From an uncultured delta proteobacterium (lineage in GTDB: Bacteria; Desulfobacterota; Binatia; JACPRU01), in NCBI GenBank assembly GCA_963790365.1, contig CAWBOU010000047.1, positions 71,429 through 135,428 on the forward strand: a DNA stretch of 64,000 nt. Reading direction: 5' to 3'. How positions within the stretch are numbered: the stretch's first letter is position 1; each line of letters starts with the position of its first letter. A program made the position numbers and the translations under genes. The notes below the pieces were generated by a model, which made no database searches, was not told where the DNA came from, and worked only from the letters and a program-made list of their open reading frames with translations. Below, piece after piece: positions 34,392 to 53,626 of the stretch.

Positions 34392-34474
34392 TCGGGATTC
34401 TCTTTCGACGCTACAACACCGGTTGCGCCGGTCGCAAGATCGGCAAATGTCTCTACCGAGGAGGTTCCGCGACG

Positions 34475-36075
34475 ATGAACGACCGAGAGCTCTGGGATCG
34501 CTACCGCCGTCATCTTTGTGTCGTCGACAGTCTCGGGCTCGAGCTCGATCCGTCGCGGATGCGCTTCGGCGACGACTTCTTCGACCGCATGGCGCAACCG
34601 ATGGCGCAGGCGTTCGACGAGATGGAGGCGCTCGAGCGCGGCGCGATCGCGAACCCCGACGAGAATCGCATGGTCGGGCACTACTGGCTTCGCGCGCCCG
34701 AGCTGGCGCCGACGCCGGAGCATCACTCGGGCGATCCGAGAACACGCTGGCGGCGATCCACGGCTTCGCCGCGGACGTCCACGCCGGGCGCATCCGCCCG
34801 GAGAAGGCCGACCGCTTCCGCAGGATCCTCGTGGTCGGCATCGGCGGCTCGGCGCTCGGTCCGCAGCTCGTGGCCGATGCGCTCGGCGGGCGCGCAGGAC
34901 GCGATGCGGCCGTCGTTCCTCGACAACACCGATCCGGACGGCATCGACCGCGTGCTCGGCGGCCTCGGCGACGAGCTCGCGGCGACGCTCACCGTCGTCA
35001 TCTAGCAAGTCCGGCGGCACCAAGGAAACGCGCAACGGCATGCTCGAGGCCGCGCGCCGCGTATCCGCGCGGGGGCTCACGTTCGCCCGGCACGCGGTGG
35101 CGGTGACCGGCGAGGGCAGCGAGCTCGACCGCCACGCGGTCGCGGAGAAGCTGGCTCGCGCCGCTTCCCGATGTGGGACTGGGTCGGCGGCCGCACGTCC
35201 GAGCTTTCCGCGGTCGGTCTCCTGCCGGCGCGCGCTGCAGGGGATCGACATCGACGCGCTCCTCGCCGGGCGCGCGGGACATGGACGTCGCGACGCGGGT
35301 CGGCGACGTCAAGCGGAACCCCGCGGCGCTGCTCGCGCTCATGTGGCATCACGCCGGGGACGGCCGAGGCAAGAAGGACATGGTGATCCTGCCCTACAAG
35401 GACCGCTTGCTCCTCATGCAGCAAGTACCTCCAGCAGCTCGTGATGGAGTCGCTCGGCAAGGAGCTCGATCGCAAGGGCCAGGTCGTGAACCAGGGCATC
35501 GCCGTCTACGGCAACAAGGGCTCGACCGATCAGCACGCCTACGTGCAGCAGCTCCGCGACGGCGTGAACAACTTCTTCGTCACGTTCATTGAGGTGCTGA
35601 ACGATCGCGCAGGCGACATCGATGGCCGTCGATCCGGGCGTGACGAGCGGCGACTACCTGCTCGGCTTCCTGCTCGGCACGCGACGCGCGCTCTTCGAGA
35701 AGGACCGCGAGTCGATCACGATCACGGTGCCCGAGGTGAGCCCGCGCACGCTCGGCGCGCTGATCGCGCTCTACGAGCGCGCGGTCGGCTTCTACGCGAT
35801 CGCTCGTCGACATCAACGCCTATCACCAGCCCGGCGTCGAGGCGGGCAAGAAGGCGGCGACGGCCGTGCTCGAGCTGCAGGGACGCGTGCTCGCCCACCT
35901 GAAGGGGGGCGGGTCCGGCACGGCGGAAGCGATCGCCGCGGCCGTCGGCGCGCCGGAGGCGGCCGAGACGATCCTGCACGTCCTTCGACACCTCGCCGCC
36001 AACGGCCGCGGCGTGGAGGCGTCGGTCGCCAAGTCCCCGTTCGAACAGAGCTTTCGCCTCGCCCAGGCTCGTTAG
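34475..36075 (+). pseudogene. pgi: glucose-6-phosphate isomerase in about 12 frame segments, or assembly indels
   Basis: Pieces in successive frames: [27 protein letters not shown] | ITRAIRE | [24 protein letters not shown] | [16 protein letters not shown] | SKSGGTKET.. | [22 protein letters not shown] | [12 protein letters not shown] | ..[18 protein letters not shown] | [31 protein letters not shown] | [15 protein letters not shown] | [15 protein letters not shown]. Confidence 0.85.
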
Positions 36076-37912: not shown

Positions 37913-37916
37913 TCGA

Positions 37917-39027
37917 TTACCCCGTATGGCACTCGGCGCACTTCGTCGGGCCGCCGTCCTTCTTATGACAATCGATGCATTGCGTGTGGTACGCGTCCTC
38001 GAAGCTCGGGCAGGCCTTGTTCTTCTTCCCCACCGTCGCGCCGTTGCACTCGTTCGCGGTGTGGCAGCCCGAGGAAGAGCACGAGTACGAGGGCACCGCC
38101 CCGCCCTTCGCCTTCACCGGGTGATGACACGTCTCGCACTTGATCGAGTAGTCTTCCCAATGCGCCTTGTGCGTGAACGGCGTGGCCGGCCGCTTCTTCG
38201 CGGTGCCGGCGATCGGCTCGAGGTTCACGTTGTCGGGCCCGTTGCCGGCCGGCTTCTTCGCCGGTGCCGCCTTCGGCTGCGGCGGCCGGCTTCGCGGCGG
38301 GCGCCTTCGTGCCGCCCTCCGCGGCCGGTGCCTTCGCAACTTCCGTCTTCTTGTCGGCGGGAGCGGCCTTGGCCGGCGCCGGCTTCGCCGCGGGATCCGC
38401 GAGCCGCGCGGTCTCGACCCAGCCCTCGATCGCGCCGCCGTCGATCACCTGCGTGCGGACGCGCGACCAACCCTCGCGATCCTCCAGCACCTCGACGTCG
38501 GTGCGGCCCTGGAACTCGCCGAGCACCGCGCCACTCGGCGACGAGGCGAGCTCGGTGCCGCGCGCGGCGACCGCGCGGCGTGCGAGCCGGATCGGCGTCG
38601 GCTCGGCGACGGGCGCGGGCTTGTCGGCGACCGCGGCGGGCGGCTCCGGCTTCGGCTCGTCGACCACGACGGTCTTGCCTGCGGCCTCGTCCTTCGGCTC
38701 GGCGGCCGGCGCCGCCGGCTCGGTCTTCGGCGGCGCCGCCTTGGCGACTTCCTTCGGCGCCGCTTTCCCGTCGGCGCTTTCCTTCGCCGCGGCGCTCTCC
38801 TTTGCCTCGTCCTTGGCAGCCGAGTCTTTCGCCGGCTTCTCCTTGCCGGGCTTCGGCGTGTGCGCCGAGAGCGCGGCGCCGACCCGCGTCGCGGCCTTCG
38901 GCGTCTTCAGCCGAGTTTCGACGATCGGCGTGCGCCCCGCCGCGCCGCTTTCCTGGTCGCGCCCGCACGCAACCAGCACGAGAAGCGCAAGCCCGACCGA
39001 AACACCCGCTCGTCGAAGGCCGCTCAT
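37917..39027 (-). pseudogene. lipoprotein: bacterial SH3-like domain + Ala/Pro/Lys linker + tetrahaem cytochrome c3-like domain (one frame change near 38285)
   Basis: ATG 39027 after GGGAGAG (ATGA overlap with the upstream stop). [21 protein letters not shown] lipobox; ..LGEFQGRTDVEVLEDREGWSRVRT..GWVETARL. After the shift: FTHKAHWEDYSIKCETCHH, CSSSGCH, CIDCH, CAECH. Confidence 0.75.
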
Positions 39028-42000
39028 TCGCTCTCCCGCAGGCGAACGCCGGGCGCTTCGCGGAGCCTCACGCCCGGCCCCTCGCGCAGCTTGATGCCGG
39101 GCGCCTCGCGGAGCTTGATCCCGGGCTGCTCGATCACCGGCTGGCCGCGACGAACGCGCTCGACGCCTTCCGGCGGCGGCGCGGCCTCCGCGGCGACCGT
39201 CTGGAACGTGAGCTCCTTGCCGTCGTCGGGCGCGAAGTCCGTGACGGTGTAGAGCTCGCCGTTGCGCACGTAGAGCCGTCGCATCTCGTCCGCCGTGAAC
39301 GGGCGGCCGCCGCGGCGGCCGAAGACGGCGACCTGGTTGCCGGTCTCGTCGACCGCGCGATCGCGGTCGAGGCCCTTCGAGAGCGCGATCGCCGGGCCGT
39401 GCGTCGGGAACGATGGCGATCAAGTGCGGCTGCGGCCTCGGGCTGAAGCCGAAGTGCCCGGAGCTTCCCGTCGGCGACGTGAGCTGCAGCACGCGGAGGC
39501 CGTTCTTGCCGTCCGCGACGTAGGCGAAGAGGCTCGCGTTCGTCATGCCGACTGCGGACGCGCGCGCGTCGTTCATCTCGCCGCCCGCGTCGAACGTCTC
39601 GACGAGCTTCGGCGTCATCGGCTTCTCGACGTCGACGATCGCGATGCCCTGCGCGCCCGCTGCGACGTACGCGTACGTGCGCGCCACGTAGACGTCGTTC
39701 GCCGCGGCGATCGGCACCTTCGCGTCGGGCACAACGACCGGTTTGTCATGCTCGGTGATGTCGAGGACCTTGAGGCCCTCGGCGTCGGCGACGAACGCGT
39801 AGCGGAACTGGCGATCGATCGCCCGCGGCTTGACGATCGCGGGCGCGCCGATCTCGGCGGTCACGCGGGGATGGAGCGGATCGTCGAGGTCGACGACGAC
39901 GAGCCCGCGGTCGCAGAGCACGTAGGCGTACGTGCCGGTGATCGCGACGTTGCCGCGCCGTCGAGGACGCCGCCCGGGTTGAACGTCAGCGGCGCGCTCG
40001 AGGAAGTTGTTCGCGGGATTGCCGTCGAGCAGCGTCGCGGCGTGCACGAGGATCAAGCCCTCCTCGCGGTCGGTCACGTAGAGGTAGCGCGTAGAGCGGA
40101 TGGATCGGCTGCTCCTCGTTCTCGGCGAGCCGGTCCGCGCGGGATCGACCGCGAGCGTCGCCGGCGCCGCGACCGAGGTCGCGTCCTTCGTCTTCACGTA
40201 GAGGCGCTGCCCGAGCGGCGAGACGGGCGCCGTGGTGATGCGCTCCGAGAACGCCCTTGTTGTCGATGTTGGCGACGTCGTAGACGCGAAGGCCGCCCGG
40301 CCCGTTCGCCGCGTAGAGGTACTCGCCGCGCAGCTGCAGGCTCTGCACCTCGTCACCGCGGCCGCACAGCCAGGAGACTCGAGGATGTCGTTGCCGGGGT
40401 GCTCGATGACCTCGTCGAGCTCGCGATCGCGCTCGACGTGGCGGCGGTATCGCATCGGGATAGGCGAGCGGTGGAGCTGGCTGCCGATCACCGCCTGCGG
40501 CTCGTCGCCCTCGGTGACCGCCACCGCCTCGAGCCCTTCGTCCTCCGAGCCCGACGTACGCGAAGCGGCCGAAGAAGTTCACGAAGCTGCGTGCCGTGGA
40601 GCAGCAGCTGCGCCATCCACGCGTTGTTGTCGCCTCGGTCGGAGACGTGGCAGTCCGTGCAGACCTTCGTCTCCGTGCGCGCGCACGGTGTGCGGCACGT
40701 GCGTGTTGAACGCCTGGCCGGTGAAGCCCTCCGCGGAGATCGTCTGCTGCTGCGAGTAGAACCACTCGCGGTTCTGCGTTCTGCGAGCTCACGAGCACGC
40801 GCGCTCGACGAGCGCACCGGCGAGATCCGGCTGCCCGCGGCGGTGCCGTCGCTGCCGAGCATGAAGACGTCGTCGCGCAGCACCTGGAAGTTGTAGCCGG
40901 TCCAGTTGCGGAGCTTCTCGCCCTCGTTGTGGAGAGTTCGTGCGGCGGTTCGCCTGCTGCGAGCAGATGGCAGCCGAAGCAGCTCGTCATCCACGAGGTG
41001 TGGCACGTGAAGCAGGTCATCTTGTCGTCGCCGTGCGCGAGCGCGCTCGCGTCGTCCGGCACGTCGCCCCACGTCTTGCCGTCTCTGCGGATGGTCTTCG
41101 CGAGGCGCGAGGCCTCGTTGTAGTGCGCGCTCGCGGGATCCACGGTGTCGCGCGTCTGCACGACTTCCCACTCGACGTTCGGCGTCACCGCCGAGCGCTG
41201 GAAGAGCTTGGCGCCCTTCTTGAAGAACGCGCTCGCCGAACGCCGTGCGGTTGTACTTCTTCAGCGGATTTCCGCCCGCGGGCCCGCGGGTCTTCCAGTC
41301 GCGCGCCGTCGGATCGGCGAGCGCGGAGATCGAGCCGTGGCAGTCGATGCACTGGATCTCGATCGCGTTCCGCACCTCGCCGTAGAGCTTGCCGTCGCCG
41401 TGCGCGTCCTGCTCGAAGTGGCAGTCGACGCAGTGCATCCCCTTCTCGAGGTGGATGTCCTTGAGATGCACGGCCTTCTTGAAGCGCTCGGGATCGTCCC
41501 ACGGGATCGTCTTGCCGCGCGCGTCGAGCAGGTTGCCCTTGCGATCCTGCTTGTAGACGTTCCGGAAGATCCAGCCGTGGCCGTGGAAGTCGGCGAACTG
41601 CGTCTTCGTGAGCTTCGGGTTCAGATCCGTCAGGTTCGCGAGGAACTCCGGCGTCGGACCAAGGCCGCGGAGCGCCGCGCGGCCTCGGGTTCGCCGTCTC
41701 GAGCGTCGACGCTGCTCGCTCGCGGCGAGCGCCTCTTCGGCTCGCGCTGATACGAAGCGCTCGCCGTCGGTCTCGTTGTCCCACCAGGTCGTGCCGTAAT
41801 ACGTGTTCACGACGTTCGTGCCCGGATGCATGTGGCAGACGACGCACTGGCTCGACGGGATCGCGCTCGTGAACTGTGCCGGATCGGGTGGCCGGGCTCG
41901 TCCTTCGGGATCGTCGGGTCGACCGTCGCCGTCTGGCCGCGGTTGCCGAACTGGGCCCACGGGCCGGAGTGCACCGGGTCGCGATCGTTCGCGTAGACGA

Positions 42001-42956
42001 CGTGGCAGCCGGTGCAGCCGCTCGAGCGGTAGTCGCCGGGGTGATCGTTCGTGCCGAGCATGTGGAGGATCGGGTCGAGCAGACGCGTCTTCTGCAGGCC
42101 GAAGAAGACCGGGTCCGTGCGATTCGCCGTGCCGAGGCCGCGCTGGCTGAGTCGCCGCTCGGGCGCCCCGGAGGATCCGGCTCGAGCACGTTGATGTTGC
42201 CGATCTCGAGGGCTTCCGCCCGCCGCGCTCGAAGAAGCGGAGGATGTTGCCGGGCTGGCTGATCTCCCACCGCGCGAGCGGCGCGAGGAACGGCAGGATC
42301 CCGCGCTTTTTCGTCGCCTCCGCGTCGGGCGCATCTTTGGCGACGAGCGCCTGCGGCTTGCCGTCGCGGCCGTAGCTCTCGCCGAAGCGCGGGTCCTTCA
42401 CCGGGATCGAGCCGTTGTTGTAGAGCGCCGCGCCCCAGAGGCTCGCCCCGTGGGTCATCATGCTCGTCTTCACGCGCGCGACCTGATCCGCGTGACATCC
42501 GTCGAGCCCGCACGTGCGGTCCGCGACGCGGAGATCCCCGGGGTTCATGAACTGTACGAACTCGGGGCTCTCCTTCAGGAACGCCGCGTTCGAGCGGACG
42601 GGGTTCGCGCTCGTCTTGAAGACGTCCGCCTGAAGCGGCGCGACGTGGGCGGTCTCCTTGTCCTTGGCGCCGATGGTCCCCCCGTGACAGTCGACGCACG
42701 CGAGCGGGATGTCCGCCTCGTGCATCGACGCCGAGTCCGTCGAGGTGTGACAGGAGACGCAGCCCTCGTTCTTGCGCGTGACGTCGTCCGACGATTGGCT
42801 CATCAGGTCGACGGTCGGCGCCTTCGCGGTCTCCGCCGCGGCGGGGGTGTCCGCGCTCGCAGGCTCCGGCGCCTCGTCGGCGGTCGTCGCCACCGGCGCG
42901 ACGATCAGAAAGAGCGCGAGGAGAGTGCGCGACAGGGGGAAAGTTCTTCTTACCAC
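39024..42956 (-). pseudogene. about 1300-codon multihaem cytochrome c fused to an LVIVD-repeat beta-propeller, read through at least a dozen frame changes (or assembly indels)
   Basis: Signal MVRRTFPLSRTLLALFLIVAPVA. Haem sites CVSCH, CVDCH, CGLDGCH, CTGCH, CVVCH, CVDCH, CIDCH, CFTCH, CFGCH, CTDCH. Then, with no stop, GEYLYAANGPGGLRVYDV, GTYAYVLCDRGLVVVDLDD, YAFVADAEGLKVLDI, YAYVAAGAQGIAIVDV, FAYVADGKNGLRVLQL. C-terminus has 4x PG(I/V)(K/R)LRE. Confidence 0.7.
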
Positions 42957-44713
42957 GTGAGCGTCACGGCCAAGAAGGTCGAGAACAGCGTCTGGTCGCG
43001 GAGTATCTCGCGAAGCCCCTCGAACGGCGTCAGCGCGGCGGCGCTCGCGACGAGGATCACGTTGTCGATGAGCAGCGGCCGGTACTGGATGCCGATCGAG
43101 TAATCGAGGCCGATGTTCGGATCGATGTCGGCCTGCTCGAGCACGAGCTCGAGCGAGTCGGTTTCCGCAAAGCGGAGATAGTTCACGTTGACGACGGCGC
43201 GGAGCTTCGGCGTGAGCTCCATGTCGAAGCCCACGTTCGAGACGATGACGCCGGGGTTCACGAAGTTCGGCTGGCCCTCGAACTTGCTCGTCCGGAGGCT
43301 CGGCAAGAGCGAGAAGCGTTGGTCGAGCGCGACCGGCGCGCCAGTCAGCGGTAGGCCCTGGCGGTTCCAGTAGCTGAACCCGCCGCCCGCGAACGCGCTG
43401 TTGTCGGAGATCGTGTCGAAGCCGTTCGCATCGTCGTCGAGCGGATCGTCGTCGCCCGAGGCGTAGAGCACCGAGATCTTCGGGCGCAGCCAGTCGCGGT
43501 CGAACGAGAGCTCGAGCGCGGCGAGCTGCGCGTTGATGTCGACCTGGCGGCCGGCGATCGGATTGAAGTCGTCTTCGCCGACGACCCAGTAGAAGGCGTG
43601 ACTGACGTTCAGCCAGCCGACGTGCCCCTCACCCGCCCAGCCGGCGTAGTAGGCGTCGATGTCGTGGAAGCGGACGCTGCCGTCGGGGATGACCGAGCCG
43701 ACGACCGCCGGGCGCACGAGGAACCCGTTCTCGTCGAAGTGCGTCTCATCCGCGTGGTCCGCGTTGTAGTGGAACGAGAACTGGGTGGTGTAGCCGTACC
43801 AGAACGTGTCCTGGCGGTAGAGATTCGCGATGGCCACGTCCTGCTGGCGATCCTCGAACGCGTCGAAGCTGTCGAGGCGGTTCAAGCCGCTGTTCGTGTC
43901 CTTCTCGAGCGGGCGGAAGTACGCGAGGTTGTACTGCCACTGGTTCGCGCCCCAGTTGCCGAAGAGGCGCGCGCCCGCCTGGTTGTCCGCGAAGATGAAG
44001 CCGCGGAAGTCGCTGGTGAAGCCCTGCACGCCGAGGCGCGTCGAGATGAAGTCGTAGTAGTCGTTCAGATCGCCGAGGTGGTACTCGACGAGGGCCTCCT
44101 GGATGCCGACGAAGCCGTCGAATCGCGTGGTGCCCTCGCGCGGATCGATCTCGAGGACGTTCTCCTCGCCCGCGTCGACGTAGCTGATGTTGAAGACCGG
44201 CGTGAAGCGGATCTCCCAGTCGCGCGGCTTGAACGCGGATTGGCCTTTGAAGAACTCGAACGAGGTGACGAAGTTCTGGTTGAAGACGAGGATCTCACTC
44301 TGACCGAAGAAGTCGTCGCGATCCGCCTCGGCCGCCGGAATGCCGCTCGGCTTCGGAATCCGCGACGCCTCGAAGAGCGTGTCGGAGACGCCGGTGAACG
44401 CGAGGAAGATGTCCTGCCCGAGGATCGGGTAGTCACCCTTCGCCACGTTCTGGTTGTACGGGTCGTACCAGCGGCCCTCGACCAAGGGATGCTCGCCCGG
44501 CGTCGACTCGTAGCGCTGCCAGCGCGGGAAACCGATGCGCCATCGGTCGGGCAGCGGCAGGAAGTCGTCGTCCGTCGCGCTCTGCATGCGCCGCGGGCGG
44601 CCGGCGGCGCCGAGCGTCTGGCCGAAGTCGGGGCCGGCCTCTTGCGCGGCCGCGACGAGCGGCGACGAGAGGCACGCGAGAAGCACGGACACTGCCGTCC
44701 TTCGAGCATTCAT
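42950..44713 (-). CDS. outer-membrane beta-barrel (porin-like) protein
   Basis: Signal MNARRTAVSVLLACLSSPLVAAAQ; alternating beta-strand-like composition rich in Y/F/W/G/N/D; terminal ..FLAVTLTW (aromatic C-terminus). Overlaps the cytochrome start by 7 nt. Confidence 0.75.
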   Translation of the reverse strand: MNARRTAVSVLLACLSSPLVAAAQEAGPDFGQTLGAAGRPRRMQSATDDDFLPLPDRWRIGFPRWQRYESTPGEHPLVEGRWYDPYNQNVAKGDYPILGQDIFLAFTGVSDTLFEASRIPKPSGIPAAEADRDDFFGQSEILVFNQNFVTSFEFFKGQSAFKPRDWEIRFTPVFNISYVDAGEENVLEIDPREGTTRFDGFVGIQEALVEYHLGDLNDYYDFISTRLGVQGFTSDFRGFIFADNQAGARLFGNWGANQWQYNLAYFRPLEKDTNSGLNRLDSFDAFEDRQQDVAIANLYRQDTFWYGYTTQFSFHYNADHADETHFDENGFLVRPAVVGSVIPDGSVRFHDIDAYYAGWAGEGHVGWLNVSHAFYWVVGEDDFNPIAGRQVDINAQLAALELSFDRDWLRPKISVLYASGDDDPLDDDANGFDTISDNSAFAGGGFSYWNRQGLPLTGAPVALDQRFSLLPSLRTSKFEGQPNFVNPGVIVSNVGFDMELTPKLRAVVNVNYLRFAETDSLELVLEQADIDPNIGLDYSIGIQYRPLLIDNVILVASAAALTPFEGLREILRDQTLFSTFLAVTLTW

Positions 44714-44715
44714 TT

Positions 44716-46302
44716 CTATCGTTCCGGTTGGCGGTTGAACTTCAGGTACGGAATCCGTTCTCCGGCGAAGAAGAAGTTGTCGATGCGGATCGCGTCGGGC
44801 GGCTCGAAGCCTTCGGCACCCTCGGCGGCGATCACGTCGTTGTTCTCGACGCCGTCGCCCGAGACGCCGAGCCCGCCGATCAGGTTGCCGGCGCCGTCGT
44901 AGAGCGGCACGGCGCCCGGGAAGAACGTGAGGCCGTTCTGCCGTCCGGGCACCGGCGGCGCGTTGCCGAGGCGCGTCGCCTGCTCGGGACGCTGGTTCTG
45001 CAGCGCGAGGTTGAAGAGCGGGCCGGGCGCGGTGCCGTCGATGCCCGGCGGGAAGACCGGCTGCGAGAGGAAGCCGAGCGCGGTCGTCGTGGTCGCCGTA
45101 CCGTTCGGGACGCCGGGGATCGCGTCCTGCGGCGCGGGCCCTTCCGGCCGGCTGTAGTAAACCACGGAGCGCGCCTTCGCAGGCACGACGTCGACCGCGT
45201 CCGTCAGGCAGTCCTCCATCCGGAAGTGGCCGAGGATGAGGCCATCGAGATCCGTGATCGTGATGATCACGACGGCGGTCGTGCCGCCGGGCAGACGGAC
45301 CGCCGCGCGCGTGCGGTTCGAGCTCGCCACCGCCTGCTGAACGATGCGATCGACCGCTTCCGCGGGGAAATTGCCGCGAGGGCTGCTGCGCGGCCCGATC
45401 AGATAGCCGAACGGATCGACGTTGCCGTCACGCGGCGCGACCGTGATCGCGCCCGAGCCGTCGCCGGGCGGCGCACCCGCTGGACGGTCGAACGTCGCGA
45501 CGAACGGCAGGCGGATGCCGAACAGCACGACCGCGCCCTCCGGCGGAATGTCCACGGGAAAGCGGAAGCCGGCCGAGCCGGAGAACGCGGCGAACTCGCT
45601 CGCGTCGAAGGACAGGCTCGGCGCGTAGGCACCGACGCCGCCGACGAGCCGGCCGTTCTTGTAGAGCGGCACCGCGCCCGGGAGCAGCGTGATGCCCGGG
45701 CTCGGGAAGCTGCCGTCGATGTTCGTCGAGCGCGGATATGCCTGTCCGGGATTGAAGCTCGTGTCCCCCGTCTCGATCGGCGCGCCGCGGTTCGTCGCGT
45801 TGATCTGCCAGAGCGGCCCTTGGTCGGTCCCGGGAACCCCGGAGGTCGTGAGCTGCGGCGCGATCACCGTCGGGCCGCAGCTGCCGCCGCTCGACGGACA
45901 GACGGACGGGAGCAGCGGCGCCGAGAACGTCGGCGGGAAGTGGAAGGCGCCGAGGAACTGCACGGTGCGCGAGCTGAGCGGCGCCTGGCTGTTCGAGAAG
46001 AACGAGGTCGTGCGGGCGAGGCTGACGGCGATGTTCTGCACGTCGCGGCCCGCGCCGGGATAGGCGAAGACGCCGAGGATCGAGCCCTGGCGGTCCGTCA
46101 CGGCGAGCGCCAGGTCGCTCGCGGCGACCGCCGCCGCGCCCTGCTGGAGGACCTGCGAGACGTCGCCGGCGGTGAGCGGCGTGACCGGGCCGAACGTGGG
46201 CGTTTCGAGATCGCTCCCGCTGCCGCCGCAGCCGATCGCGATCGCCGCGACGAGAACCGCGAATCGTCGCGAAGTGCGCCCCAGGATCGCCGGCTCCCCC
46301 AT
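44716..46302 (-). CDS. lipoprotein with two GlcG/HbpS-like (DUF336) domains
   Basis: ATG 46302 after GGAGGAGG. MGEPAILGRTSRRFAVLVAAIAIGC lipobox. Two copies of (LA)VTD..G.ILG.. and PGAVPLY..G.L(V/I)GG(V/L)G(A/V); the second is PGAVPLYDGAGNLIGGLGVSGDGVENNDVIAAEGA. Confidence 0.75.
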   Translation of the reverse strand: MGEPAILGRTSRRFAVLVAAIAIGCGGSGSDLETPTFGPVTPLTAGDVSQVLQQGAAAVAASDLALAVTDRQGSILGVFAYPGAGRDVQNIAVSLARTTSFFSNSQAPLSSRTVQFLGAFHFPPTFSAPLLPSVCPSSGGSCGPTVIAPQLTTSGVPGTDQGPLWQINATNRGAPIETGDTSFNPGQAYPRSTNIDGSFPSPGITLLPGAVPLYKNGRLVGGVGAYAPSLSFDASEFAAFSGSAGFRFPVDIPPEGAVVLFGIRLPFVATFDRPAGAPPGDGSGAITVAPRDGNVDPFGYLIGPRSSPRGNFPAEAVDRIVQQAVASSNRTRAAVRLPGGTTAVVIITITDLDGLILGHFRMEDCLTDAVDVVPAKARSVVYYSRPEGPAPQDAIPGVPNGTATTTTALGFLSQPVFPPGIDGTAPGPLFNLALQNQRPEQATRLGNAPPVPGRQNGLTFFPGAVPLYDGAGNLIGGLGVSGDGVENNDVIAAEGAEGFEPPDAIRIDNFFFAGERIPYLKFNRQPER

Positions 46303-46366
46303 GTCCTCCTCCCCGATGCGGCGGGTAACACGCCCGCTCACGCACGGTCAACGAGAGTCAAACGAG

Positions 46367-46450: not shown

Positions 46451-46462
46451 TCACTCTTTCCG

Positions 46463-49400
46463 TCACGACCAGGCGATGACTTGCTCCTGCTTCTCGACGA
46501 ACGGCACGCCGATCTTTTCGATCCAGCCGCGCGGCGGGTCCGCGCCGATGAGCGCGAAGACGTGCACGCAGTCGAGCGTGCGCGGCCCGGCGGCGAGCTT
46601 CAGCACGGCACCCTCGGCGCGCAGCTCGGTCACCGACGACTCCCAGACGATCTCGATCCGGCCGGCCTTCGAGAGCTCCTCGATCTGCTCGAGATTCCGC
46701 TTCTTCACGCGCGCAAACGCGTTCTTGCGGTAGGAGAGCCAGACGGTCGTGCCCTCCGCCTTGCCGAGCGCGACGGCCGCCTCGATCGCGCTGTCGCCGC
46801 CGCCGACGACGAGCACCTTCTTGCCCTTCCAATCCCCGGCGTCGATCAGGTTGTAGGAGACGAGGCCCGCCTCTTCGCCCGTGCAGCCCAGACGACGCGG
46901 GTTCCCGCGCGTGCCGATCGCGAGCACCACGTTCGCGGCGGTGTACTCGCCCTTCGCGGTCTTCACCTTGAGGAGCTCGCCCTCGCGGCGGATCTCGCTC
47001 ACTTCCTCGTGCTGCTGCACCTCGAGGCCGGTCGCCTTCACGACCGCTTCCCACACCGCGATCAGCTCGTCCTTCTCGGCGTCCATCATGGGAAGCTTGC
47101 CGTAGAGCGGAACCTTCACGGGCTCGGCGAGCACCGCCTTGTCGCGCGGGTACGCGCGGATCGTGCTCGCGACCGTGTCGCGCTCGAGGACGAGGTAGCG
47201 GAGACCCGTGGCCTTCGCCTCGAGGCCGGCGCCGAGGCCGGCGGGCCCGGCGCCGACGACGATCACGTCGTAGTGCGGCGCAGCGACTCGCTTCTTCTTG
47301 TCCTTGATGTACCGCACGACGTCGGTGCCCTGGTTCACCGCCGATTTGATCAGCGCGGCACCGATCACCTCGCCAACGAAGAAGAGGCCCGGCATCGGCT
47401 TCGCCTCGAGGTGGTCGTCCGTGTCCGGCCGCTCGACCGTGCGCACCAGCGGCGCGGTGCTGACGCGGATCGCACCCGTCGGACAGCCCTGCTCGCAAAC
47501 CGCGCAGCCTTCGAGCGCGATGCAGCTGTCGGGATTGACGACGGTCGACTTGCCGTGGTCGTCGCCCGCGAGCACCTGCTTCGGGCACGAGTTGTAGCAG
47601 CTGCTGCACGAGATGCAGGCTTCGACGTCGACCGTCGGGAAGGGCATGACCTCGCCCTTCGGAGTGTCTCCCTCGGGCGGCGCTCCGGCCGGCGCCTGGC
47701 CCGGCCCGGCCGCGGCCTGCTCCGGCTCGAGATAGCGCCGCGCGACGCGCATGTCCGTGTAGAGGTAGGCGAAGCCGCCGAGGATGAGCGTCGCGAGCCC
47801 GATCAAGAAGCGATCGAAGCCGCGTGCGGGCGGGGCCGCGGCCGCGGCGGTCTCGCCGCCGTCGAAGCTGTGGTGCGAGCGATGGCAATCGAGGCACGCG
47901 ACCGTCGCCTTCTTCTCCTCGTGGCAGGTCACGCACGCGTCCATCGTCATCACGTAGACGTCGGGCGAGCGGAACACGCTCGCGTACGTCCCCTCCTCCC
48001 ACACCGGCGCGTGGCAGCTCTGGCAGAGCTCCTCGCCATGATCGCGATGCGCGAACCGCGTCCACGCGAACGCGCTCGGCGGGAGCTCCTGCATCTCCCC
48101 GTCCTCGCGCGTGTGGCATTCGAGACAATCCGGGCCCTTCTTCTGCTGCGCGACCTTCTCGTCCGCCGAGACGGCCTTCTCGTGGCACTCGATGCACTGT
48201 GCGTGGCCGGGCATCGCGAACGTGCGGCCGTCGTCCACGTTCGCGTGGCAGCCCGTGCAGTTGTCGAACCTCGCCTCCCCTTTCGTTTCCGCATCGTGAG
48301 CCGCGTGCGCGAAGCGGAGACCGATCTCGACCTTGCGGAACGGCTCGGCGAGCTTGGCGATCGCGGCGGTGCCGCCGGCGACCGTGGCCGCCGCGCGCAT
48401 CGGCCGCGCGTCGAAGTCGCGCGGCTCGTCGCGCCCGAGGTGGCAGCTCCAGCAGACGTCCTTGCCGCCGGCGATCGGGAAATTCCGGCCGCGATGGTCG
48501 GTGTGGCAATCGAGGCAGTTGTCCTGGATACCTGGTTCGTTCGCGAGCGCGCTCGCGTGGCAGTCCGCGGTGACGCAGCTGCCACTCATCGCGAGCTGCG
48601 TCTGACGAGTGCCGATGCCCTCGAAGCCGGCGTGGCAGCTGCCGCACTTCTCGCGCGACTCGAGCTCGGCATGCTCGGCGTGGAGCGGCCCGGCCGAGAG
48701 CAGCGCCGGATACTGCATGCTGAAGCCGAGCGAGACGATCGCGGCGAGGAGCATCATGCCGAGGCTCGCCCACTGTCGCGGCGTGCCGGGCACGCGCACC
48801 GGGCGAAGGCTCACGCCCTTCATGATGCGGCTGATCCGCTGCTTCGCCTCGGCGCTCTTCGCGAGCTCCGGGATCGGCTCCGCCTTCTTGCCCTTGCCCT
48901 TCGCGGCCGGCGCTTCCCCACCCGCGGCCGGTGGCGCGGCGGAAGGCGGTGCGGCAGGAGGCGGCGGAGCCGCGGCCACCGCGCCGATGCGCGTGAGCTG
49001 CGTGCCCTCCTCGACCGCGGACGCGACGCCGGCTCCGCCGAGCTCCACCGCGACGCGCGCATCGCCGAGCCGGAGCTCCTCGCCGCCGCGAAGCGGAAGC
49101 GACTGCACGCGCTCCGTGGAATCGCCGACGAACGTGCCGTTCCGGCTGCCGATGTCCTTCAGGACCCAGCCATCCGGCGTGCGCAGGACCGTGCAGTGAT
49201 TCCCCGAGACCGAGGGATCGTCGATCCGGAGCATCGCGGCCGAGCTGCGGCCGATCGTCACCTCTTGCGTGCCGGCCGGGACCTCGAGCACGCTGCCGGA
49301 CGCGAGGATGCGGAAGCGGAGCACGGGCGGGGCGTCGGCCGCCGGCACTGCGTCGGTGGCGGGCAGCGGCGCATCCGCCGGAGCCGCCTCGGCTTCAGCC

Positions 49401-50164
49401 TCGCGCGGGCGGATCGCGGTGAGCGATGGCATCGAGAGCGCGAACGTGGACTCGCCCACCTTGATCGCGAACGTCTGCTCGGAGGCCTCGACCTTGGCGC
49501 CGCCGCCCATCTCGACGCGGATCTGAGTGCCGCCGCCGAGCCGCACGATGTCTCCATGCGCGAGAACGCCGTGGTAGATCCTTTGCGGAGGCGTGCCGAC
49601 GTAGATGCCGTTTCGGCTGTTCTCGTCGTAGATCGCGTAGCCGCCCTTCTCGCGCTTGATCGTCGCGTGAAGGCGCGAGAGCGACGGGTCGTTCAGCGGC
49701 ACGTCGTTCGTCGGCAGCCGCCCGAGCGTGATCTTCTCCTTCGGCGGCGAGAAGACCTGGCCGCGATCCGGCCCGGAGACGACCGTGAGCACGATCGGCA
49801 GGTCCGACGGCAGCTGCGCGATGACGGTCGCGCCTTCGGCCTTCACGGCCGCGGCCTGCCCGGCGAGGATCGCGACGCGGAGGCGCGCCTTGCCGACGAG
49901 AATCGTCTCGCCGTCGGCGAGCCGCCGGCGCTTCACCCGATCCTGCGAGCCCTCGACGAACGTGCCGTTCCGACTCTCGAGATCGACGAGCGCGAAGCCG
50001 TCGCCGTCGCGCTCGATCGCGGCGTGCTTGCGCGAGATCTGATCGTCGTCGAGCTCGACGTCGGCTTCGACACGCCCGATCGTGAGCCGCTCACCACGCA
50101 GCTCGAACTCATGCCGTTTCTTTTCAGCATCGAACCAGGCGAGCTTCAGTCGCGTCGAAGGCAT
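46463..50164 (-). CDS. 3x FHA, TM, about 10-haem cytochrome c domain, TM, 2x[4Fe-4S] ferredoxin, FAD/NAD(P)-binding oxidoreductase fusion protein (1233 aa)
   Basis: Uninterrupted ORF. FHA patterns at aa 25-95, 143-215 and 300-372. Hydrophobic helices at aa 465-483 and 785-802. Nine CxxCH plus CVTADCH between them. CISCSSCYNSCP and CIALEGCAVCEQGCP. VIVVGAGPAGLGAGLEA and VLVVGGGDSAIEAA. Confidence 0.9.
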   Translation of the reverse strand: MPSTRLKLAWFDAEKKRHEFELRGERLTIGRVEADVELDDDQISRKHAAIERDGDGFALVDLESRNGTFVEGSQDRVKRRRLADGETILVGKARLRVAILAGQAAAVKAEGATVIAQLPSDLPIVLTVVSGPDRGQVFSPPKEKITLGRLPTNDVPLNDPSLSRLHATIKREKGGYAIYDENSRNGIYVGTPPQRIYHGVLAHGDIVRLGGGTQIRVEMGGGAKVEASEQTFAIKVGESTFALSMPSLTAIRPREAEAEAAPADAPLPATDAVPAADAPPVLRFRILASGSVLEVPAGTQEVTIGRSSAAMLRIDDPSVSGNHCTVLRTPDGWVLKDIGSRNGTFVGDSTERVQSLPLRGGEELRLGDARVAVELGGAGVASAVEEGTQLTRIGAVAAAPPPPAAPPSAAPPAAGGEAPAAKGKGKKAEPIPELAKSAEAKQRISRIMKGVSLRPVRVPGTPRQWASLGMMLLAAIVSLGFSMQYPALLSAGPLHAEHAELESREKCGSCHAGFEGIGTRQTQLAMSGSCVTADCHASALANEPGIQDNCLDCHTDHRGRNFPIAGGKDVCWSCHLGRDEPRDFDARPMRAAATVAGGTAAIAKLAEPFRKVEIGLRFAHAAHDAETKGEARFDNCTGCHANVDDGRTFAMPGHAQCIECHEKAVSADEKVAQQKKGPDCLECHTREDGEMQELPPSAFAWTRFAHRDHGEELCQSCHAPVWEEGTYASVFRSPDVYVMTMDACVTCHEEKKATVACLDCHRSHHSFDGGETAAAAAPPARGFDRFLIGLATLILGGFAYLYTDMRVARRYLEPEQAAAGPGQAPAGAPPEGDTPKGEVMPFPTVDVEACISCSSCYNSCPKQVLAGDDHGKSTVVNPDSCIALEGCAVCEQGCPTGAIRVSTAPLVRTVERPDTDDHLEAKPMPGLFFVGEVIGAALIKSAVNQGTDVVRYIKDKKKRVAAPHYDVIVVGAGPAGLGAGLEAKATGLRYLVLERDTVASTIRAYPRDKAVLAEPVKVPLYGKLPMMDAEKDELIAVWEAVVKATGLEVQQHEEVSEIRREGELLKVKTAKGEYTAANVVLAIGTRGNPRRLGCTGEEAGLVSYNLIDAGDWKGKKVLVVGGGDSAIEAAVALGKAEGTTVWLSYRKNAFARVKKRNLEQIEELSKAGRIEIVWESSVTELRAEGAVLKLAAGPRTLDCVHVFALIGADPPRGWIEKIGVPFVEKQEQVIAWS

Positions 50165-50174
50165 CGTCGGAATC

Positions 50175-51245
50175 TCAGTAGTAGAAGACCGACACGATGT
50201 GGATCAGCGAAAACGCCGCGAGCCCCGCGGAGAGCGGAATGTGCGCGGTGAGCCACACCTTCAGCAGGTAGTCGTATCGCAGCTGCGGATAGAGCGAGAC
50301 TTCGAGCTTCTCCTTGTCGAAGACGAGCCGCATCGCCTTGCGGAAGTCCTCCTGCTCGCCGGCAGGGATCTCCTTGACGATCAGCCGCAGGCGATCCGGC
50401 CGGCTCGTGTCGCGCTCGAGCGTCGCCGGGCCCCAGATCCAGGGGAGCGACGGCTTCATCGCGATGCCCGGAATCGACATCTCGACGTCGTACACGCGGC
50501 GGAACGCGTCGGACTTCCCGGTCGCGAGACCCTTCAGCTCTTCGAGGACCTGCTTCAGCTCGTCCCGCAGCTCCTCCGGCGACCGCGCCGCCTTCTCCTC
50601 GATCTCCGTGAGCCTCGGCGGGATGCGGCGGTAGAGGACCACACCGAGGAGCCCGGTCAGCACGACGGCGACGAGCAGCACGAAGGCGATCGCGGCGATC
50701 GGGTTCGCGAAGCGGAAGCCCGCGTGAAGGAGGATCAGCACGACGGCGAGCACGCCGAGCGCGAGATGCCACTCGTACCAGACCTGCAGACGCCCGCCCC
50801 ACTCGCGCCGCTCGAAGACGAGCCGCGGCGCGCCGCTGCTCGTCTTCAGGAGGCGCACGCGGATCGTCCTCGTCACCTTGTGGCGCTTCAGGATCTTCTT
50901 CACCTCGCTCCGGAGCTGCCGCAGGTCCTGCTTCGGATTCTGCATCAGCGAGCGCTCGACGCCGCGAAGGTCGTTCTGCGCCTTGCGCTCGCGGCTCACG
51001 AGGTCCCTGCGCTTCTCCGCGTCGATGAGGATCGGCCGGCTCGCGCGCTCGATCTGCCGACGCCGCCATCCGTAGAGACCGGCGACGATCATCGCGAGCG
51101 TGCCGAAGATGCCGAGCCACACGCCCGTCGCCGAGCGGCCGGAAGGCGCGAGCGGACGAACCGAGGCGTCCTGCGTGTACCAGATGGCGCACGCGATCGC
51201 GGCGAGCACCGCGATCGACACCACTCGCAACCTGAGAGCGCTCAC
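50175..51245 (-). CDS. 5-TM membrane protein with two H-x13-H helices (candidate dihaem b-type cytochrome)
   Basis: 356 aa. Helices around aa 8-24, 41-60, 160-177, 183-205 and 331-353. His160/His174 and His335/His349 are each spaced by 13 residues inside helices. Starts 4 nt after the upstream stop. Confidence 0.75.
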   Translation of the reverse strand: MSALRLRVVSIAVLAAIACAIWYTQDASVRPLAPSGRSATGVWLGIFGTLAMIVAGLYGWRRRQIERASRPILIDAEKRRDLVSRERKAQNDLRGVERSLMQNPKQDLRQLRSEVKKILKRHKVTRTIRVRLLKTSSGAPRLVFERREWGGRLQVWYEWHLALGVLAVVLILLHAGFRFANPIAAIAFVLLVAVVLTGLLGVVLYRRIPPRLTEIEEKAARSPEELRDELKQVLEELKGLATGKSDAFRRVYDVEMSIPGIAMKPSLPWIWGPATLERDTSRPDRLRLIVKEIPAGEQEDFRKAMRLVFDKEKLEVSLYPQLRYDYLLKVWLTAHIPLSAGLAAFSLIHIVSVFYY

Positions 51246-51249
51246 GCCG

Positions 51250-52794
51250 CTACTCCCGAGCGGAAATGATGCGATCCAGCTCGTCGGCGCGCAGCCGCTG
51301 GATCGCCCCCGTTGGACAGTTGCTCACGCAGGCGGGGAACAGATGTCCCTTGTCGAGATCGCACTTCACGGGGATGCGCTTCAGCTTCGGCCGCTTGTCC
51401 GTCGCTTCCGGGACGTCGGCGCGGCGCCGGCCGTCGCGGCGCAGCACGACGTCGATCAACGAGGGCACCGCCGGCCGATCGATCTCGTCGGTGTCGACCA
51501 TCGTGATGTTCCCGTAGGGACACCGCTGCGCACATCCGCTGCAGCCGATGCAGCTCTCGGTGAAGTAGATGTCACCGTCCTTGTCGCGCTTGATGCCGCC
51601 CGACTTGCAGAGGAGGCACGACGGATCCTGACAGAAGCGGCACGCCGTCGGGATCATCAGCTCTTCGAAGTGCACGCCCTTCCGGATCAGGCGCGAGAAG
51701 CCGTCTTCGTGCGCGGCCGCGCAGGCCTTCACGCAGTTGTCGCAGCGAACGCACGTATCTTCGTTGATCACGATGACGTCGAGGTTCGGCATGACCTCGG
51801 CGCGAAGCTCCATGCGCCTGCCGACGAACGTGACGTTCGCGACCATGTCGGCGTCGAGGCGCCGTACTTGATCGACGGCCCCGGCCTCCGCCGCGGCCGC
51901 GGGATTCGACATCACGATCTCGCGGAACGCCTTGCCCGCGAGGACGAGCGCTTCGACGCGGCCGAGCGCCGTGGCGGTCGCGGAGCGAGGCGCCCCGTTG
52001 AGGACGCCGACGTCACCGAAACAGTCGCCTTCGACGAGATACGAGAGGACCCTCGTTTCGCCGTCGGCCTCGCGCTGGGCGATCTTCACGAAGCCGGTGG
52101 AGATCACGAAGACGTCGTCGGAAGGCTGTCCCTGCTCGAAGATCGTCGCGCCGACCTCGAACGTGCGCGTCGACGCCGCGCGGAGCACGTTCTCGAACTC
52201 CTTCTCGCTCGCCGAGCGCAGCACCGGCACGCGACGCACGAGCGTGCGGATCACCCGGAACACGTACCGCTCCATGATCGCCGCGCGGAAGCTTTCGGTC
52301 GTCGAGACGAGCTCTTGGACGATGAACTGCGGGATCAACATCAAGAGCGCCGGCGTCTTCGTCACGACGCTCGCGAGGTGTGCGTTCATGGAAAGCACAG
52401 AGTGCTCGCCGAAGAACGAGCCTTCGGGAAGATCGTCGACCGGCAGCGCGACGGTGCGATCGATGTCGGCGGAGTAGTTCGTCGACATCCCCGCCTGCCC
52501 GCGCAGGATGAAGAAGAGATGCTCGCCGAAGCTGCCTTCCTGGAAGACGCTCGTGTCGGCCGGAACTTCCCAGAACTCCGCGTGCTCGCCGAGCGCATCG
52601 CCGACGGAAACCTTGACCGGCCCCTTCGCGCCCGGCCGCGTCTCGTACGGCTTGTCGAGCAGGTCCTTGAAGAGCGCGAGGCCTTGGAAGAAGCGCAGCT
52701 TCTCGTCCGCGGAGAGGCTCAGCTGCTTCACCGCCGGCGATCGCGTCAGCGCAAAGCTCGGTCGATGAGCTTCGCTCGACTCCAGGAGTGCCAT
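51250..52794 (-). CDS. two cyclic-nucleotide-binding domains fused to a multi-cluster [4Fe-4S] ferredoxin domain
   Basis: ATG 52794 (MALLESSE..). cNMP-like FQEGSFGEHLFFILRG..FFGEHSVL, and a canonical second domain IFEQGQPSDDVFVISTG..CFGDVGVLNGAPRSATATA. CVRCDNCVKAC, CRFCQDPSCLLC, CIGCSGCAQRCP, ..ACVSNCP. Confidence 0.85.
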   Translation of the reverse strand: MALLESSEAHRPSFALTRSPAVKQLSLSADEKLRFFQGLALFKDLLDKPYETRPGAKGPVKVSVGDALGEHAEFWEVPADTSVFQEGSFGEHLFFILRGQAGMSTNYSADIDRTVALPVDDLPEGSFFGEHSVLSMNAHLASVVTKTPALLMLIPQFIVQELVSTTESFRAAIMERYVFRVIRTLVRRVPVLRSASEKEFENVLRAASTRTFEVGATIFEQGQPSDDVFVISTGFVKIAQREADGETRVLSYLVEGDCFGDVGVLNGAPRSATATALGRVEALVLAGKAFREIVMSNPAAAAEAGAVDQVRRLDADMVANVTFVGRRMELRAEVMPNLDVIVINEDTCVRCDNCVKACAAAHEDGFSRLIRKGVHFEELMIPTACRFCQDPSCLLCKSGGIKRDKDGDIYFTESCIGCSGCAQRCPYGNITMVDTDEIDRPAVPSLIDVVLRRDGRRRADVPEATDKRPKLKRIPVKCDLDKGHLFPACVSNCPTGAIQRLRADELDRIISARE

Positions 52795-52843
52795 GAGATG
52801 GGACCGTCTACCCGACTGCGACGCGCGACGGCAAGGAGCGCGG

Positions 52844-53626
52844 ATGTCAGTGCCGCCTCTCATCTGCTATGGGGCGCCCGTGGCTGCCCCCTCGCCCATC
52901 GACGACGCGCTCCGTCCCGTCGGCGAGCTCGCGGCCGGTTACGTCGACGACGGCATGCGCGTCGGCCTCGGAACCGGACGCGCCGCGTCGGCGTTCGTTC
53001 ACGCGCTCGCGCTGCGCGCGCGTGAGGGGCTCGACGTCGTCGGCGTGCCGACGTCCGAAGCGACGCGACGACTCGCCGAATCTCTGGGGCTCCGCGTCAC
53101 GGAGCTCGACGGCGTCGGCGAGCTCGATCTCACCGTCGACGGCGCGGACGAGGTCGATCCCCATCTCGATCTGATCAAGGGGCTCGGCGGCGCCCTCGTG
53201 CGCGAGAAGATCGTCGCGGCTTCGTCGGCCCGGCTCGTGATCGTCGTCGGCGGCGAAAAGCTCGTCTCTCGCCTCGGCGTGAAGACGCCGGTGCCGGTCG
53301 AGATCGTGCAGTTTTCCCGGCCGCTCTGCGAGCGGCTCATTCGCGCGCTCGGCGCCGAGCCGCGCCTGCGGATGACCCCCGCCGATTCGAAAGCGCCGTA
53401 CGTCACCGACAACGGAAACTTCATCTTGGATTGCCACTTCGCCGGCATCGACCATCCCCGCGCTCTGGAAGTCGCGCTGCGGGAGATCCCGGGGGTCGTC
53501 GGCACCGGCCTGTTCCTGAACATGGCGGAGCGGGTTCTCGTGCAGGAAGGCAACACGGTGCGCGTCCTCATGGCGCAACCGTCGCAGAGCGGAGCGACCT
53601 TGCATCCGATCGGGAAAGGGAAATAG
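52844..53626 (+). CDS. rpiA: ribose-5-phosphate isomerase A
   Basis: ATG 52844. [46 protein letters not shown]. Confidence 0.9.

Follow-up and report, generated by a model that had tools for sequence, protein, structure and literature searches.

The ptdABCDEFG gene cluster, described from marine Alpha- and Gammaproteobacteria, Nitrospirales and Planctomycetes, has been proposed by its authors to encode a porin-cytochrome complex, and no function was assigned to it (bioRxiv 10.1101/2023.11.21.568154). In Ferrigenium straubiae, a nonahaem cytochrome termed 'NHC' carries a cytosolic forkhead-associated (FHA) domain and is encoded beside proteins with five transmembrane (TM) helices and with [4Fe-4S] clusters; the authors stated that FHA-multihaem fusions were previously unreported, and proposed an inward flow of electrons linking Fe(II) oxidases to quinone (bioRxiv 10.64898/2026.01.22.701106). 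A 'Forkhead-associated protein' with 10 haem motifs was also tabulated in 27 Gallionellaceae genomes in a pangenome paper (PMC10734462). None of these three sources gives a function. Here we describe a locus in a 64,000-nucleotide stretch of DNA (the window; 69% GC) from an uncultured delta proteobacterium of the Binatia (contig CAWBOU010000047.1, positions 71,429 to 135,428). The gene under study, at 51250..52794 on the minus strand, encodes a protein of 514 amino acids (aa) with two cyclic-nucleotide-binding (CNB) domains followed by a four-cluster iron-sulphur (Fe-S) domain, and is referred to as CNB-FeS. An earlier note on this DNA had interpreted the product as an Fe-S subunit linked to cyclic nucleotides (cNMP) and tied to membrane redox proteins, and every computational check that it had proposed supported this interpretation. 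As judged from sequence comparison and gene linkage, the CNB-FeS protein is likely to be one subunit, gated by signals, of an electron pathway that crosses the membrane and is found widely. The locus itself, with its unusual combination of modules, represents one lineage's variant of a cassette that is widespread but scarcely described, and that can already be seen in databases and in two preprints.

When matched by description, all the Ptd-like parts are present in the window operon (52794-37963): a CNB-FeS protein, an adjacent TM protein, a decahaem cytochrome, a flavin adenine dinucleotide (FAD)/NAD(P) oxidoreductase, a porin and further multihaem proteins. The two differ in gene order and fusions, the FAD module and a two-cluster Fe-S domain being fused to the FHA-decahaem protein in the window. 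Moreover, the Ptd preprint makes no mention of FHA, and the window Fe-S protein has four cluster motifs versus two in Ptd. The likeness to NHC, also by description, lies in the cytosolic-side FHA on a membrane-anchored multihaem cytochrome and in the neighbouring 5-TM and cytosolic [4Fe-4S] proteins. However, neither cNMP domains on the Fe-S protein nor an FAD fusion is reported there, and the window fusion has FHA in three copies along with a second TM helix, and ends in an FeS-FAD module. A preprint on extracellular electron transfer in peat (10.64898/2026.05.27.727921) and a Tenderiales preprint do not mention the cassette. In the literature we found no report of the four-His motif, the clade pattern of phosphate-binding cassettes, the Cys-to-Asp change, the fusion permutations or the cyclase linkage that are described below.

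The CNB-FeS gene and its four-cluster domain

The reading frame starts with an ATG at 52794 and ends with a TAG at 51252-51250. If the longest reading is taken, the in-frame open reading frame (ORF) extends upstream to 52863; the start at 52794 is favoured because the N-termini of about 30 orthologues, with the conserved sequence M-[A/P]-LLES..EHRP.F, coincide with it. The ORF proposed in the earlier note, where the strand had been left unstated, is real and lies on the minus strand. All the peptide strings quoted there were located in the translation, and the statement that the 514-aa ORF stops 4 nt before the next gene was borne out by the GTG of that gene at 51245. An identical 514-aa protein is present in NCBI/ENA (P0001), and the nearest named relatives come from metagenome-assembled genomes (MAGs) of Candidatus Binatia/Binatota (56-68% identity). 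A Pfam scan, together with inspection of sequence and hydropathy, revealed no helix-turn-helix (HTH) domain, TM segment or signal peptide in the 514-aa protein. Since it has neither a TM segment nor a signal peptide, the protein is predicted to be cytoplasmic.

The C-terminal part (about aa 335-514; 51253..51777, minus strand) is an Fe-S domain of the HycB/HydN type, with four motifs and 15 of the 16 canonical Cys. Fer4, Fer4_6, Fer4_7 and Fer4_11 all scored above their gathering thresholds over aa 340-500 (for Fer4_11, 27.4 vs 26.2). The first three motifs are CVRCDNCVKAC (aa 348-358), CRFCQDPSCLLC (aa 385-396) and CIGCSGCAQRCP (aa 415-426). The earlier note had listed four Cys clusters, and four motifs were indeed found, but the fourth, C478-x2-D481-x7-C489-x3-C493-P, has only three Cys (C489VSNC493P is present), Asp481 replacing the second. 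End-to-end alignment of the domain with HycB3 (7qv7_A, E 1.3e-15) and E. coli HycB (7z0s_B, E 7.4e-14) placed Asp481 (codon 51352-51354) opposite the second motif-4 Cys of these proteins (KCDLD vs KCDLC).

For clade statistics, 112 full-length relatives were aligned, 45 of them of the Binatia type and 67 from other clades. CxxD accompanied by His484 occurs at motif 4 in all 45 Binatia-type sequences, as against CxxC in 66 of the 67 others. CxxD at this position recalls Pyrococcus furiosus ferredoxin, an example of the Asp-ligated clusters, which are labile and interconvert between 4Fe and 3Fe forms. The motif-4 cluster would be either an Asp-ligated [4Fe-4S] or a [3Fe-4S] cluster. Such a clade-wide change, with its conserved His484 and the lability expected of the cluster, could mean that the Fe-S domain senses redox state or O2 instead of serving as a wire, the altered cluster signalling to the CNB domains or to partner proteins as part of a signalling adaptor. 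We consider this very improbable. The four-cluster HycB-type architecture is that of a typical electron wire, all 16 Cys are present in most of the family, fusion to an NAD(P)H flavoprotein in several clades indicates electron throughput, and the protein has no output domain.

HycB, HydN and HycB3, from formate hydrogenlyase and HDCR, have the same order of motifs and serve as cytoplasmic wires between catalytic modules. The window protein differs from them in its N-terminal tandem CNB, in the ligand Cys that is Asp, in its partner proteins, in the spacing of motif 2 (CxxCx4CxxC) and in an insertion of about 45 aa before motif 4. The resemblance to DmsB/NrfC that had been suggested earlier holds at the superfamily level, but HycB/HydN is closer and there is no export signal. 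The NCBIfam equivalog cut-offs were missed widely for DmsB (38.1 vs 214 bits), NrfC (20.7 vs 378 bits), HydN (39.6 vs 260 bits) and AegA (41.2 vs 1003 bits). On these scores the Fe-S module is a member of the superfamily and the orthologue of no named subunit. An exported subunit of the DmsB/NrfC type was rejected in view of the missing signal peptide and twin-Arg motif, the cytoplasmic CNB domains and a neighbouring 5-TM, four-His protein that is not NrfD-like.

The tandem CNB domains

The Pfam profile cNMP_binding (PF00027) matched the protein over two stretches with an E value of 6.8e-33 (112.9 bits vs a gathering cut-off of 27.5), so that the cNMP domains, for which the earlier note had suggested a profile search, are strongly supported. 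In an AF2 model built on a 29-sequence alignment, pLDDT was about 90 across the tandem. When this model was compared with the PDB by Foldseek, the top matches were the tandem-CNB regulatory subunits of PKA and PKG (E ~1e-18); PKA-R structures that bind nucleosides and are independent of cAMP were also among the matches. The protein shares with these R subunits the fold and order of the tandem, and its second phosphate-binding cassette (PBC) resembles that of PKA. It differs from them in having neither a kinase-inhibitor nor a dimerisation/docking region, in a CNB-A without the phosphate-binding Arg, and in its effector, which would be the covalently attached Fe-S domain.

The second domain, CNB-B (about aa 185-300; 51895..52242, minus strand), was delimited from clade statistics, secondary structure and pLDDT. 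Its PBC, FGDVGVLNGAPRSATATA (aa 259-276; 51967-52020), contains G260, D261 and P269-R270-S271-A272, and aligns with the PKA PBC GDAFGELALLYNAPRAATVT. The first domain, CNB-A (about aa 30-165; 52300..52707, minus strand), was placed from the family alignment and the AF2 model. Its PBC, FFGEHSVLSMNAHLASV (aa 127-143; 52366-52416), keeps G129-E130, with H-L-A in place of Arg-[ST]-Ala. Among the Binatia-type sequences, CNB-A retains Gly-Glu and lacks the phosphate-binding Arg in 45 of 45 (A-H-L-x), and CNB-B has G-E...P-R-[S/Q/A]-A in most. These figures agree with the earlier suggestion that the second PBC is canonical and that the first may be degenerate. The residue equivalent to D261 is Glu in 42 of the 45 relatives, and Asp in the window protein and one relative. 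The other clades fall into two kinds. Both PBCs are canonical, with PR[NT]A in CNB-A, in a ~500-aa clade (Bryobacterales and others) and in an FAD-fused clade of ~790 aa. In a ~590-aa clade (Anaerolineales, Polyangiaceae, Ktedonospora) both are degenerate, Glu and Arg having been lost while the cassette was retained.

From the cassette of CNB-B we infer that this domain binds a cyclic nucleotide. The same complex might, however, contain CNB domains that are pseudo-receptor scaffolds or bind other small molecules, with regulation mainly through FHA and phospho-threonine. CNB folds with other ligands are known: trypanosomatid PKA-R binds nucleosides and NtcA binds 2-oxoglutarate. Besides the nucleoside-binding structures among the Foldseek matches, this alternative draws on the lack of Arg from CNB-A in all 45 Binatia-type sequences, on Asp for Glu in CNB-B of the window protein, on the ~590-aa clade and on the lack of a cyclase gene in the window. 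Against it stand the P-R-S-A and G-[E/D] residues kept by CNB-B in most of the Binatia-type clade, the canonical PBCs of both domains in the ~500-aa and FAD-fused clades, and the FHA-cyclase genes that adjoin the cassette in Bryobacterales (see below). On balance we regard it as rather doubtful.

Relatives of the protein are labelled 'CRP-like cAMP-binding protein' by JGI, and sub-threshold NCBIfam matches to CRP and FtrB were obtained that cover the CNB domain only. A transcription factor of the CRP/FNR family that controls the operon would explain such labels, yet we find this hardly credible and rejected it. The Pfam scan shows no HTH or other DNA-binding domain, the C-terminal half of the protein is the Fe-S domain, and the CRP score was 58.9 bits vs a cut-off of 266.

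In the secondary structure of the AF2 model, CNB-B is followed by long helices (aa 298-331) that enter the Fe-S domain directly. Geometry of this kind would be typical of proteins in which the hinge or lid movement of a CNB domain reaches an effector.

A further feature of the Binatia-type clade is Cys258 (52021-52023), just before the PBC of CNB-B. It is present in 42 of the 45 sequences and in none elsewhere, where the position is occupied by Tyr/Phe or another hydrophobic residue. Cys258 co-occurs with Asp481 and the fixed His484 in the Binatia clade only, as a single lineage event. The Cys258/Asp481 pair might represent a ligand swap or act as a sensor.

The membrane partner, the fusion patterns and a probable route of electrons

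The gene heads an operon on the minus strand that contains the FHA-cytochrome fusion, as had been stated earlier, and the next two genes follow after gaps of 4 nt and 10 nt. The first of them (50175..51245, minus strand) encodes an inner-membrane protein of 356 aa with about five TM helices by hydropathy. The sequence W-x3-H-x13-H occurs in it twice, with H160/H174 on TM3 and H335/H349 on TM5. Of the 12 columns that are invariant over 16 orthologues (22-61% identity), four are these His residues (His160, His174, His335 and His349); they are also invariant in 26 close relatives and are present in the Ktedonospora orthologue. Where two bis-His haems b are stacked across a membrane, as in cytochrome b and in NOX/FRD proteins, the classic mark is a pair of His at i and i+14 on each of two parallel helices. 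Because the protein has two His pairs with this spacing on parallel TM helices, it is put forward as a putative di-haem b transmembrane electron carrier.

The 64 relatives of the membrane protein in databases are all annotated as 'hypothetical', and Pfam gave only sub-threshold matches for the family: DUF4405 (21.8 vs 26.7 bits), Ni_hydr_CYTB and DUF4079. The Ktedonospora orthologue had a sub-threshold match to Ferric_reduct (E 0.0065). When an AF2 model of the membrane protein (pLDDT 78.8) was searched against the PDB by Foldseek, nothing significant was found (best E 0.27). A search of PDB sequences with the profile of the 16 orthologues also gave nothing (best E 0.16, 14-3-3 noise), and hhalign of this profile with E. 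coli MsrQ and YodB returned probabilities of 0.3% and 0.1%. With all three comparisons negative, the label 'ferric-reductase-like' was left unconfirmed. Between TM2 and TM3 the protein carries a highly charged insertion of about 85 aa (aa ~63-147; 50805-51059) that is predicted to be helical; it is specific to Binatia and absent from the membrane orthologues of other phyla.

The second downstream gene (46463..50164, minus strand) encodes a 1233-aa fusion in which Pfam, motifs and hydropathy together delineate the order FHAx3-TM-decahaem-TM-2[4Fe-4S]-FAD. The three FHA domains (aa 1-450) each have the canonical GR, SxxH and NG residues. They are followed by a TM helix (465-483), nine CXXCH and one CX4CH motifs (507-760), a second TM helix (~785-803), a 2x[4Fe-4S] domain (850-894) and an FAD/NAD(P)H domain of the TrxR/YpdA fold without CxxC (965-1222). 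The Pfam matches were to FHA (1.7e-48, three stretches), Pyr_redox_3 (1.8e-40), Cytochrome_C7 and Fer4_7; a YpdA-like NCBIfam match of 151 bits was under the cut-off. The predicted topology is self-consistent, with the FHA and FeS/FAD parts in the cytoplasm and the haems c, between the two TM helices, in the periplasm.

Linkage of these genes was examined in other genomes, a survey that the earlier note had proposed. With one genome taken per GTDB species, a pattern scan yielded 349 stretches that encode a relative, of which 80 were retrieved, and an exhaustive HMMER search of 1.84 billion representatives of 50%-identity clusters yielded 371 proteins at E <= 1e-30. Counts were taken over the retrieved loci whose flanks extend 3.5 kb or more upstream and 5 kb or more downstream, 39 in all. 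A same-strand ORF with at least four CXXCH motifs lies nearby in 38 of the 39, and FHA lies near the CNB-FeS gene in 34. A recognisable homologue of the membrane protein was found in 28, an underestimate because the count is phmmer-based, and a Ser/Thr kinase gene is present within 10 kb in 12. Orthologues thus do adjoin cytochrome or FHA genes, and the linkage is kept in Binatia, Bryobacterales, Nitrospirota, Alphaproteobacteria, Anaerolineales, Polyangiaceae, Nitrospinota and Ktedonobacteria.

How the modules are fused varies from lineage to lineage. The window has the order [CNB2-FeS4], [TM], [FHA3-haem10-FeS2-FAD], and Bryobacterales have [CNB2-FeS4], [TM], [FHA2-haem6-FeS2-FAD]. In Nitrospirota and Alphaproteobacteria the order is [FAD-CNB2-FeS4], [TM], [FHA-haem10], followed by HbpS-like, porin-like and multihaem-LVIVD genes. 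Loci of the type represented by locus L024 have [FAD-FHA3], [FeS2-CNB2-FeS4], [TM-haem5], and the cultured Ktedonospora formicarum SOSP1-1 has [FAD], [FHA2-Zn ribbon], [FeS2-CNB2-FeS4], [TM]. Because of these alternative fusions, by Rosetta-stone reasoning, the flavoprotein, FHA, CNB-FeS, TM and cytochrome modules would act as one complex; the permutations are the strongest argument for it.

In L024, L007 and other loci of the ~590-aa clade, a dicluster domain has been gained at the N-terminus of the Fe-S protein, and the membrane domain forms a single polypeptide with a pentahaem cytochrome. The K. formicarum locus (L081, 7073-12353; NZ_BNJF01000001.1) is a minimal, cytochrome-c-free cassette in a cultured isolate, and encodes a Pyr_redox_2 reductase, an FHAx2-Zn-ribbon protein, a Fer4-CNBx2-Fer4 protein (666 aa) and the four-His membrane protein. 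A Binatia-type cassette (49-58% identity) was also found in two MAGs titled 'uncultured Enterobacteriaceae bacterium' (L012 and L017); these titles are almost certainly a taxonomic mislabel.

In Bryobacterales-type loci, which belong to the clade with both PBCs canonical, genes that fuse FHA to an adenylate/guanylate cyclase (FHA-Guanylate_cyc) adjoin the cassette in seven of 11 cases (L004, 15999-16988; L022, 8641-9690, minus strand; L029, L031, L032, L033 and L049). In three Bryobacterales loci the FHA-cyclase gene is immediately divergent from the CNB-FeS gene. The arrangement suggests a cascade in series for this order, from phospho-threonine through the FHA-cyclase and cNMP to the CNB-FeS protein. 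In the earlier note the two signalling inputs were proposed to be independent, but the adjacent FHA-cyclases indicate that they may be coupled.

Taken together, we favour a conduit regulated by cNMP and phospho-threonine that runs from NAD(P)H through FAD, Fe-S and haem b to haem c, and give the model as a whole somewhat better than an even chance. NAD(P)H would reduce the FAD of the flavoprotein module, which in the window is the C-terminus of the FHA-cytochrome protein. Electrons would then pass through the 2x[4Fe-4S] domain to the four clusters of the cytoplasmic CNB-FeS subunit, and this chain would hand them to the two haems b of the membrane protein, which would carry them over the inner membrane to the periplasmic decahaem domain. 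In diderms, the outer multihaem/LVIVD protein would come next, reached by way of the porin-like protein. The PKA-R-like tandem would be the regulatory part, with CNB-B taking the cyclic nucleotide and CNB-A as its degenerate partner. The ligand would move the helices after CNB-B and so alter the docking or position of the Fe-S wire, gating electron flow post-translationally. A second control would lie with the FHA domains of the partner subunit, as readers of Ser/Thr phosphorylation; in Bryobacterales, FHA may also govern cNMP synthesis.

The outward direction, like the gating, is one that we infer; it is favoured because passing electrons inward to NAD(P)+ would be unfavourable on two counts, the redox potential and the membrane potential. 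With inward flow, donors in the periplasm or outside the cell, Fe(II) for example, would supply electrons that pass through haem c, haem b and Fe-S to FAD/NAD(P)+, a thiol substrate or the quinone pool. Related clusters do occur in lithotrophs (Ferrigenium, Nitrospirota and Nitrospinota), and a link from Fe(II) oxidation to quinone was proposed in the Ferrigenium preprint (bioRxiv 10.64898/2026.01.22.701106). We nevertheless hold it unlikely: electrons moving from outside to inside oppose the membrane potential, and on general bioenergetic grounds the reduction of NAD(P)+ from donors at the level of Fe(II) is strongly uphill. The cassette is also present in lineages of heterotroph type, as well as in a monoderm that lacks cytochromes c, and no quinone-site signature was found.

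Several points weigh against the favoured conduit. The direction of electron flow is not fixed by sequence. Haem b binding is argued from the His pattern, since no significant structural match and no match to MsrQ or YodB was obtained. Asp261 occupies the position of the usual ribose-contacting Glu, CNB-A is without its Arg, and no class III cyclase gene was found in the 64-kb window. Because the ~590-aa clade lost the PBC residues and keeps the cassette, the core function does not depend on cNMP binding. The AF2 model has low confidence across the Fe-S domain, modelled without cofactors (pLDDT ~50), and no biochemistry on any family member was found in the literature.

The system also has features in common with NADPH oxidases and FRD proteins, namely NAD(P)H and FAD on the cytoplasmic side, two putative bis-His haems on TM3 and TM5, and an external acceptor. 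Unlike these, it is split into subunits, a six-cluster Fe-S relay lies between FAD and the membrane haems, signalling domains are fused onto redox subunits, and homology of the TM protein to FRD or MsrQ is not demonstrable. The continuation of the diderm route through periplasmic multihaem, porin and outer multihaem proteins is reminiscent of MtrCAB/Pcc. A vent that bypasses quinone and dissipates proton-motive force would account for the heavy regulatory decoration. Tentatively, the cassette may be a multi-subunit bacterial counterpart of NADPH oxidase, an 'electron valve' that dissipates proton-motive force as electrons from NAD(P)H leave by way of Fe-S, haem b and multihaem c and cross the envelope. 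Two signals would turn the valve on or off in a matter of seconds: a second messenger that binds the Fe-S wire subunit itself, and Ser/Thr phosphorylation, read by the FHA domains of the cytochrome or reductase. In Binatia, the change of Cys481 to Asp, with the new Cys258, would provide a third point of control in the form of a redox- or O2-labile cluster. We rate this extended reading as possible, and clearly less probable than the conduit itself.

Neighbouring genes and biological meaning

Downstream of the 1233-aa fusion, the operon continues on the minus strand with a gene at 44716..46341 for a predicted lipoprotein of 541 aa, with the lipobox AIGC and a C-terminal HbpS-like domain (Pfam 1.5e-17); it is conserved in L005, L069, L084 and L085. 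The next product (587 aa; 42950..44713, minus strand) has a Sec signal peptide and a C-terminal Trp, and is a candidate porin-like beta-barrel of the outer membrane. Its NCBIfam porin match is weak (E 0.0011), and orthologues are present in L001, L005, L069 and L084 (E down to 1e-167). The region at 37963..42956 (minus strand) encodes an outer multihaem cytochrome (six CXXCH, MtrC-like) and an LVIVD beta-propeller, with Pfam matches to Cytochrom_c3_2, Mtrc-MtrF_II-IV_dom and LVIVD (3e-18). It is split into two overlapping ORFs (40488-42956 and 37963-40524), and is a single polypeptide in the homologues of L001 and L069. In tblastn, the homologues align first with frame -2 of the window and then with frame -1, the change falling near 40590-40770, and the C-terminus of the first ORF and the N-terminus of the second look like Arg-rich read-through. 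The switch is likely a frameshift, due either to an assembly error or to the region being a pseudogene.

Outside the operon, a gene at 33081..34841 (minus strand) encodes a Ser/Thr protein kinase with Pkinase (2.9e-45) and PEGA domains, which possibly supplies phospho-threonine ligands for the three FHA domains. It is followed by a gene for a 637-aa AhpC/TSA-TPR-CsgG-like protein (31171-33084, minus strand). Upstream of the operon lie rpiA and tkt, which are divergently transcribed. The longest rpiA ORF (52793-53626, plus strand) begins 1 nt from the CNB-FeS start on the opposite strand, and its Pfam match starts only at residue 83. The real rpiA start is probably about 200 nt further in, which would leave a short divergent promoter region. 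A scan of 37000-53400 for sigma-70 promoters and terminators was uninformative at this GC content, and with Rfam no RNA family was detected in any part of the window.

Extracellular and transmembrane electron transfer is usually regarded as regulated at the level of transcription. Here, sensor domains for cyclic nucleotides and phospho-threonine are fused straight onto redox subunits, and the same five modules are reshuffled in at least seven phyla, which include abundant soil and peat lineages (Bryobacterales, Binatia, Polyangiaceae and Anaerolineales). The soluble CNB-FeS protein described here and the cytochrome-c-free version of K. formicarum SOSP1-1 make the system tractable, and the clades with canonical and with degenerate PBCs are natural controls. 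If the gating is true, the cassette would place a fast post-translational switch on an electron conduit and would amount to a new, quinone-independent path for electrons from NAD(P)H across the membrane, with relevance to redox balance, to the cycling of metals and humic matter and to bioelectrochemical engineering. Should the reading as a valve also be true, it would be the first direct gating of a respiratory-type electron-transfer chain by a cyclic nucleotide.

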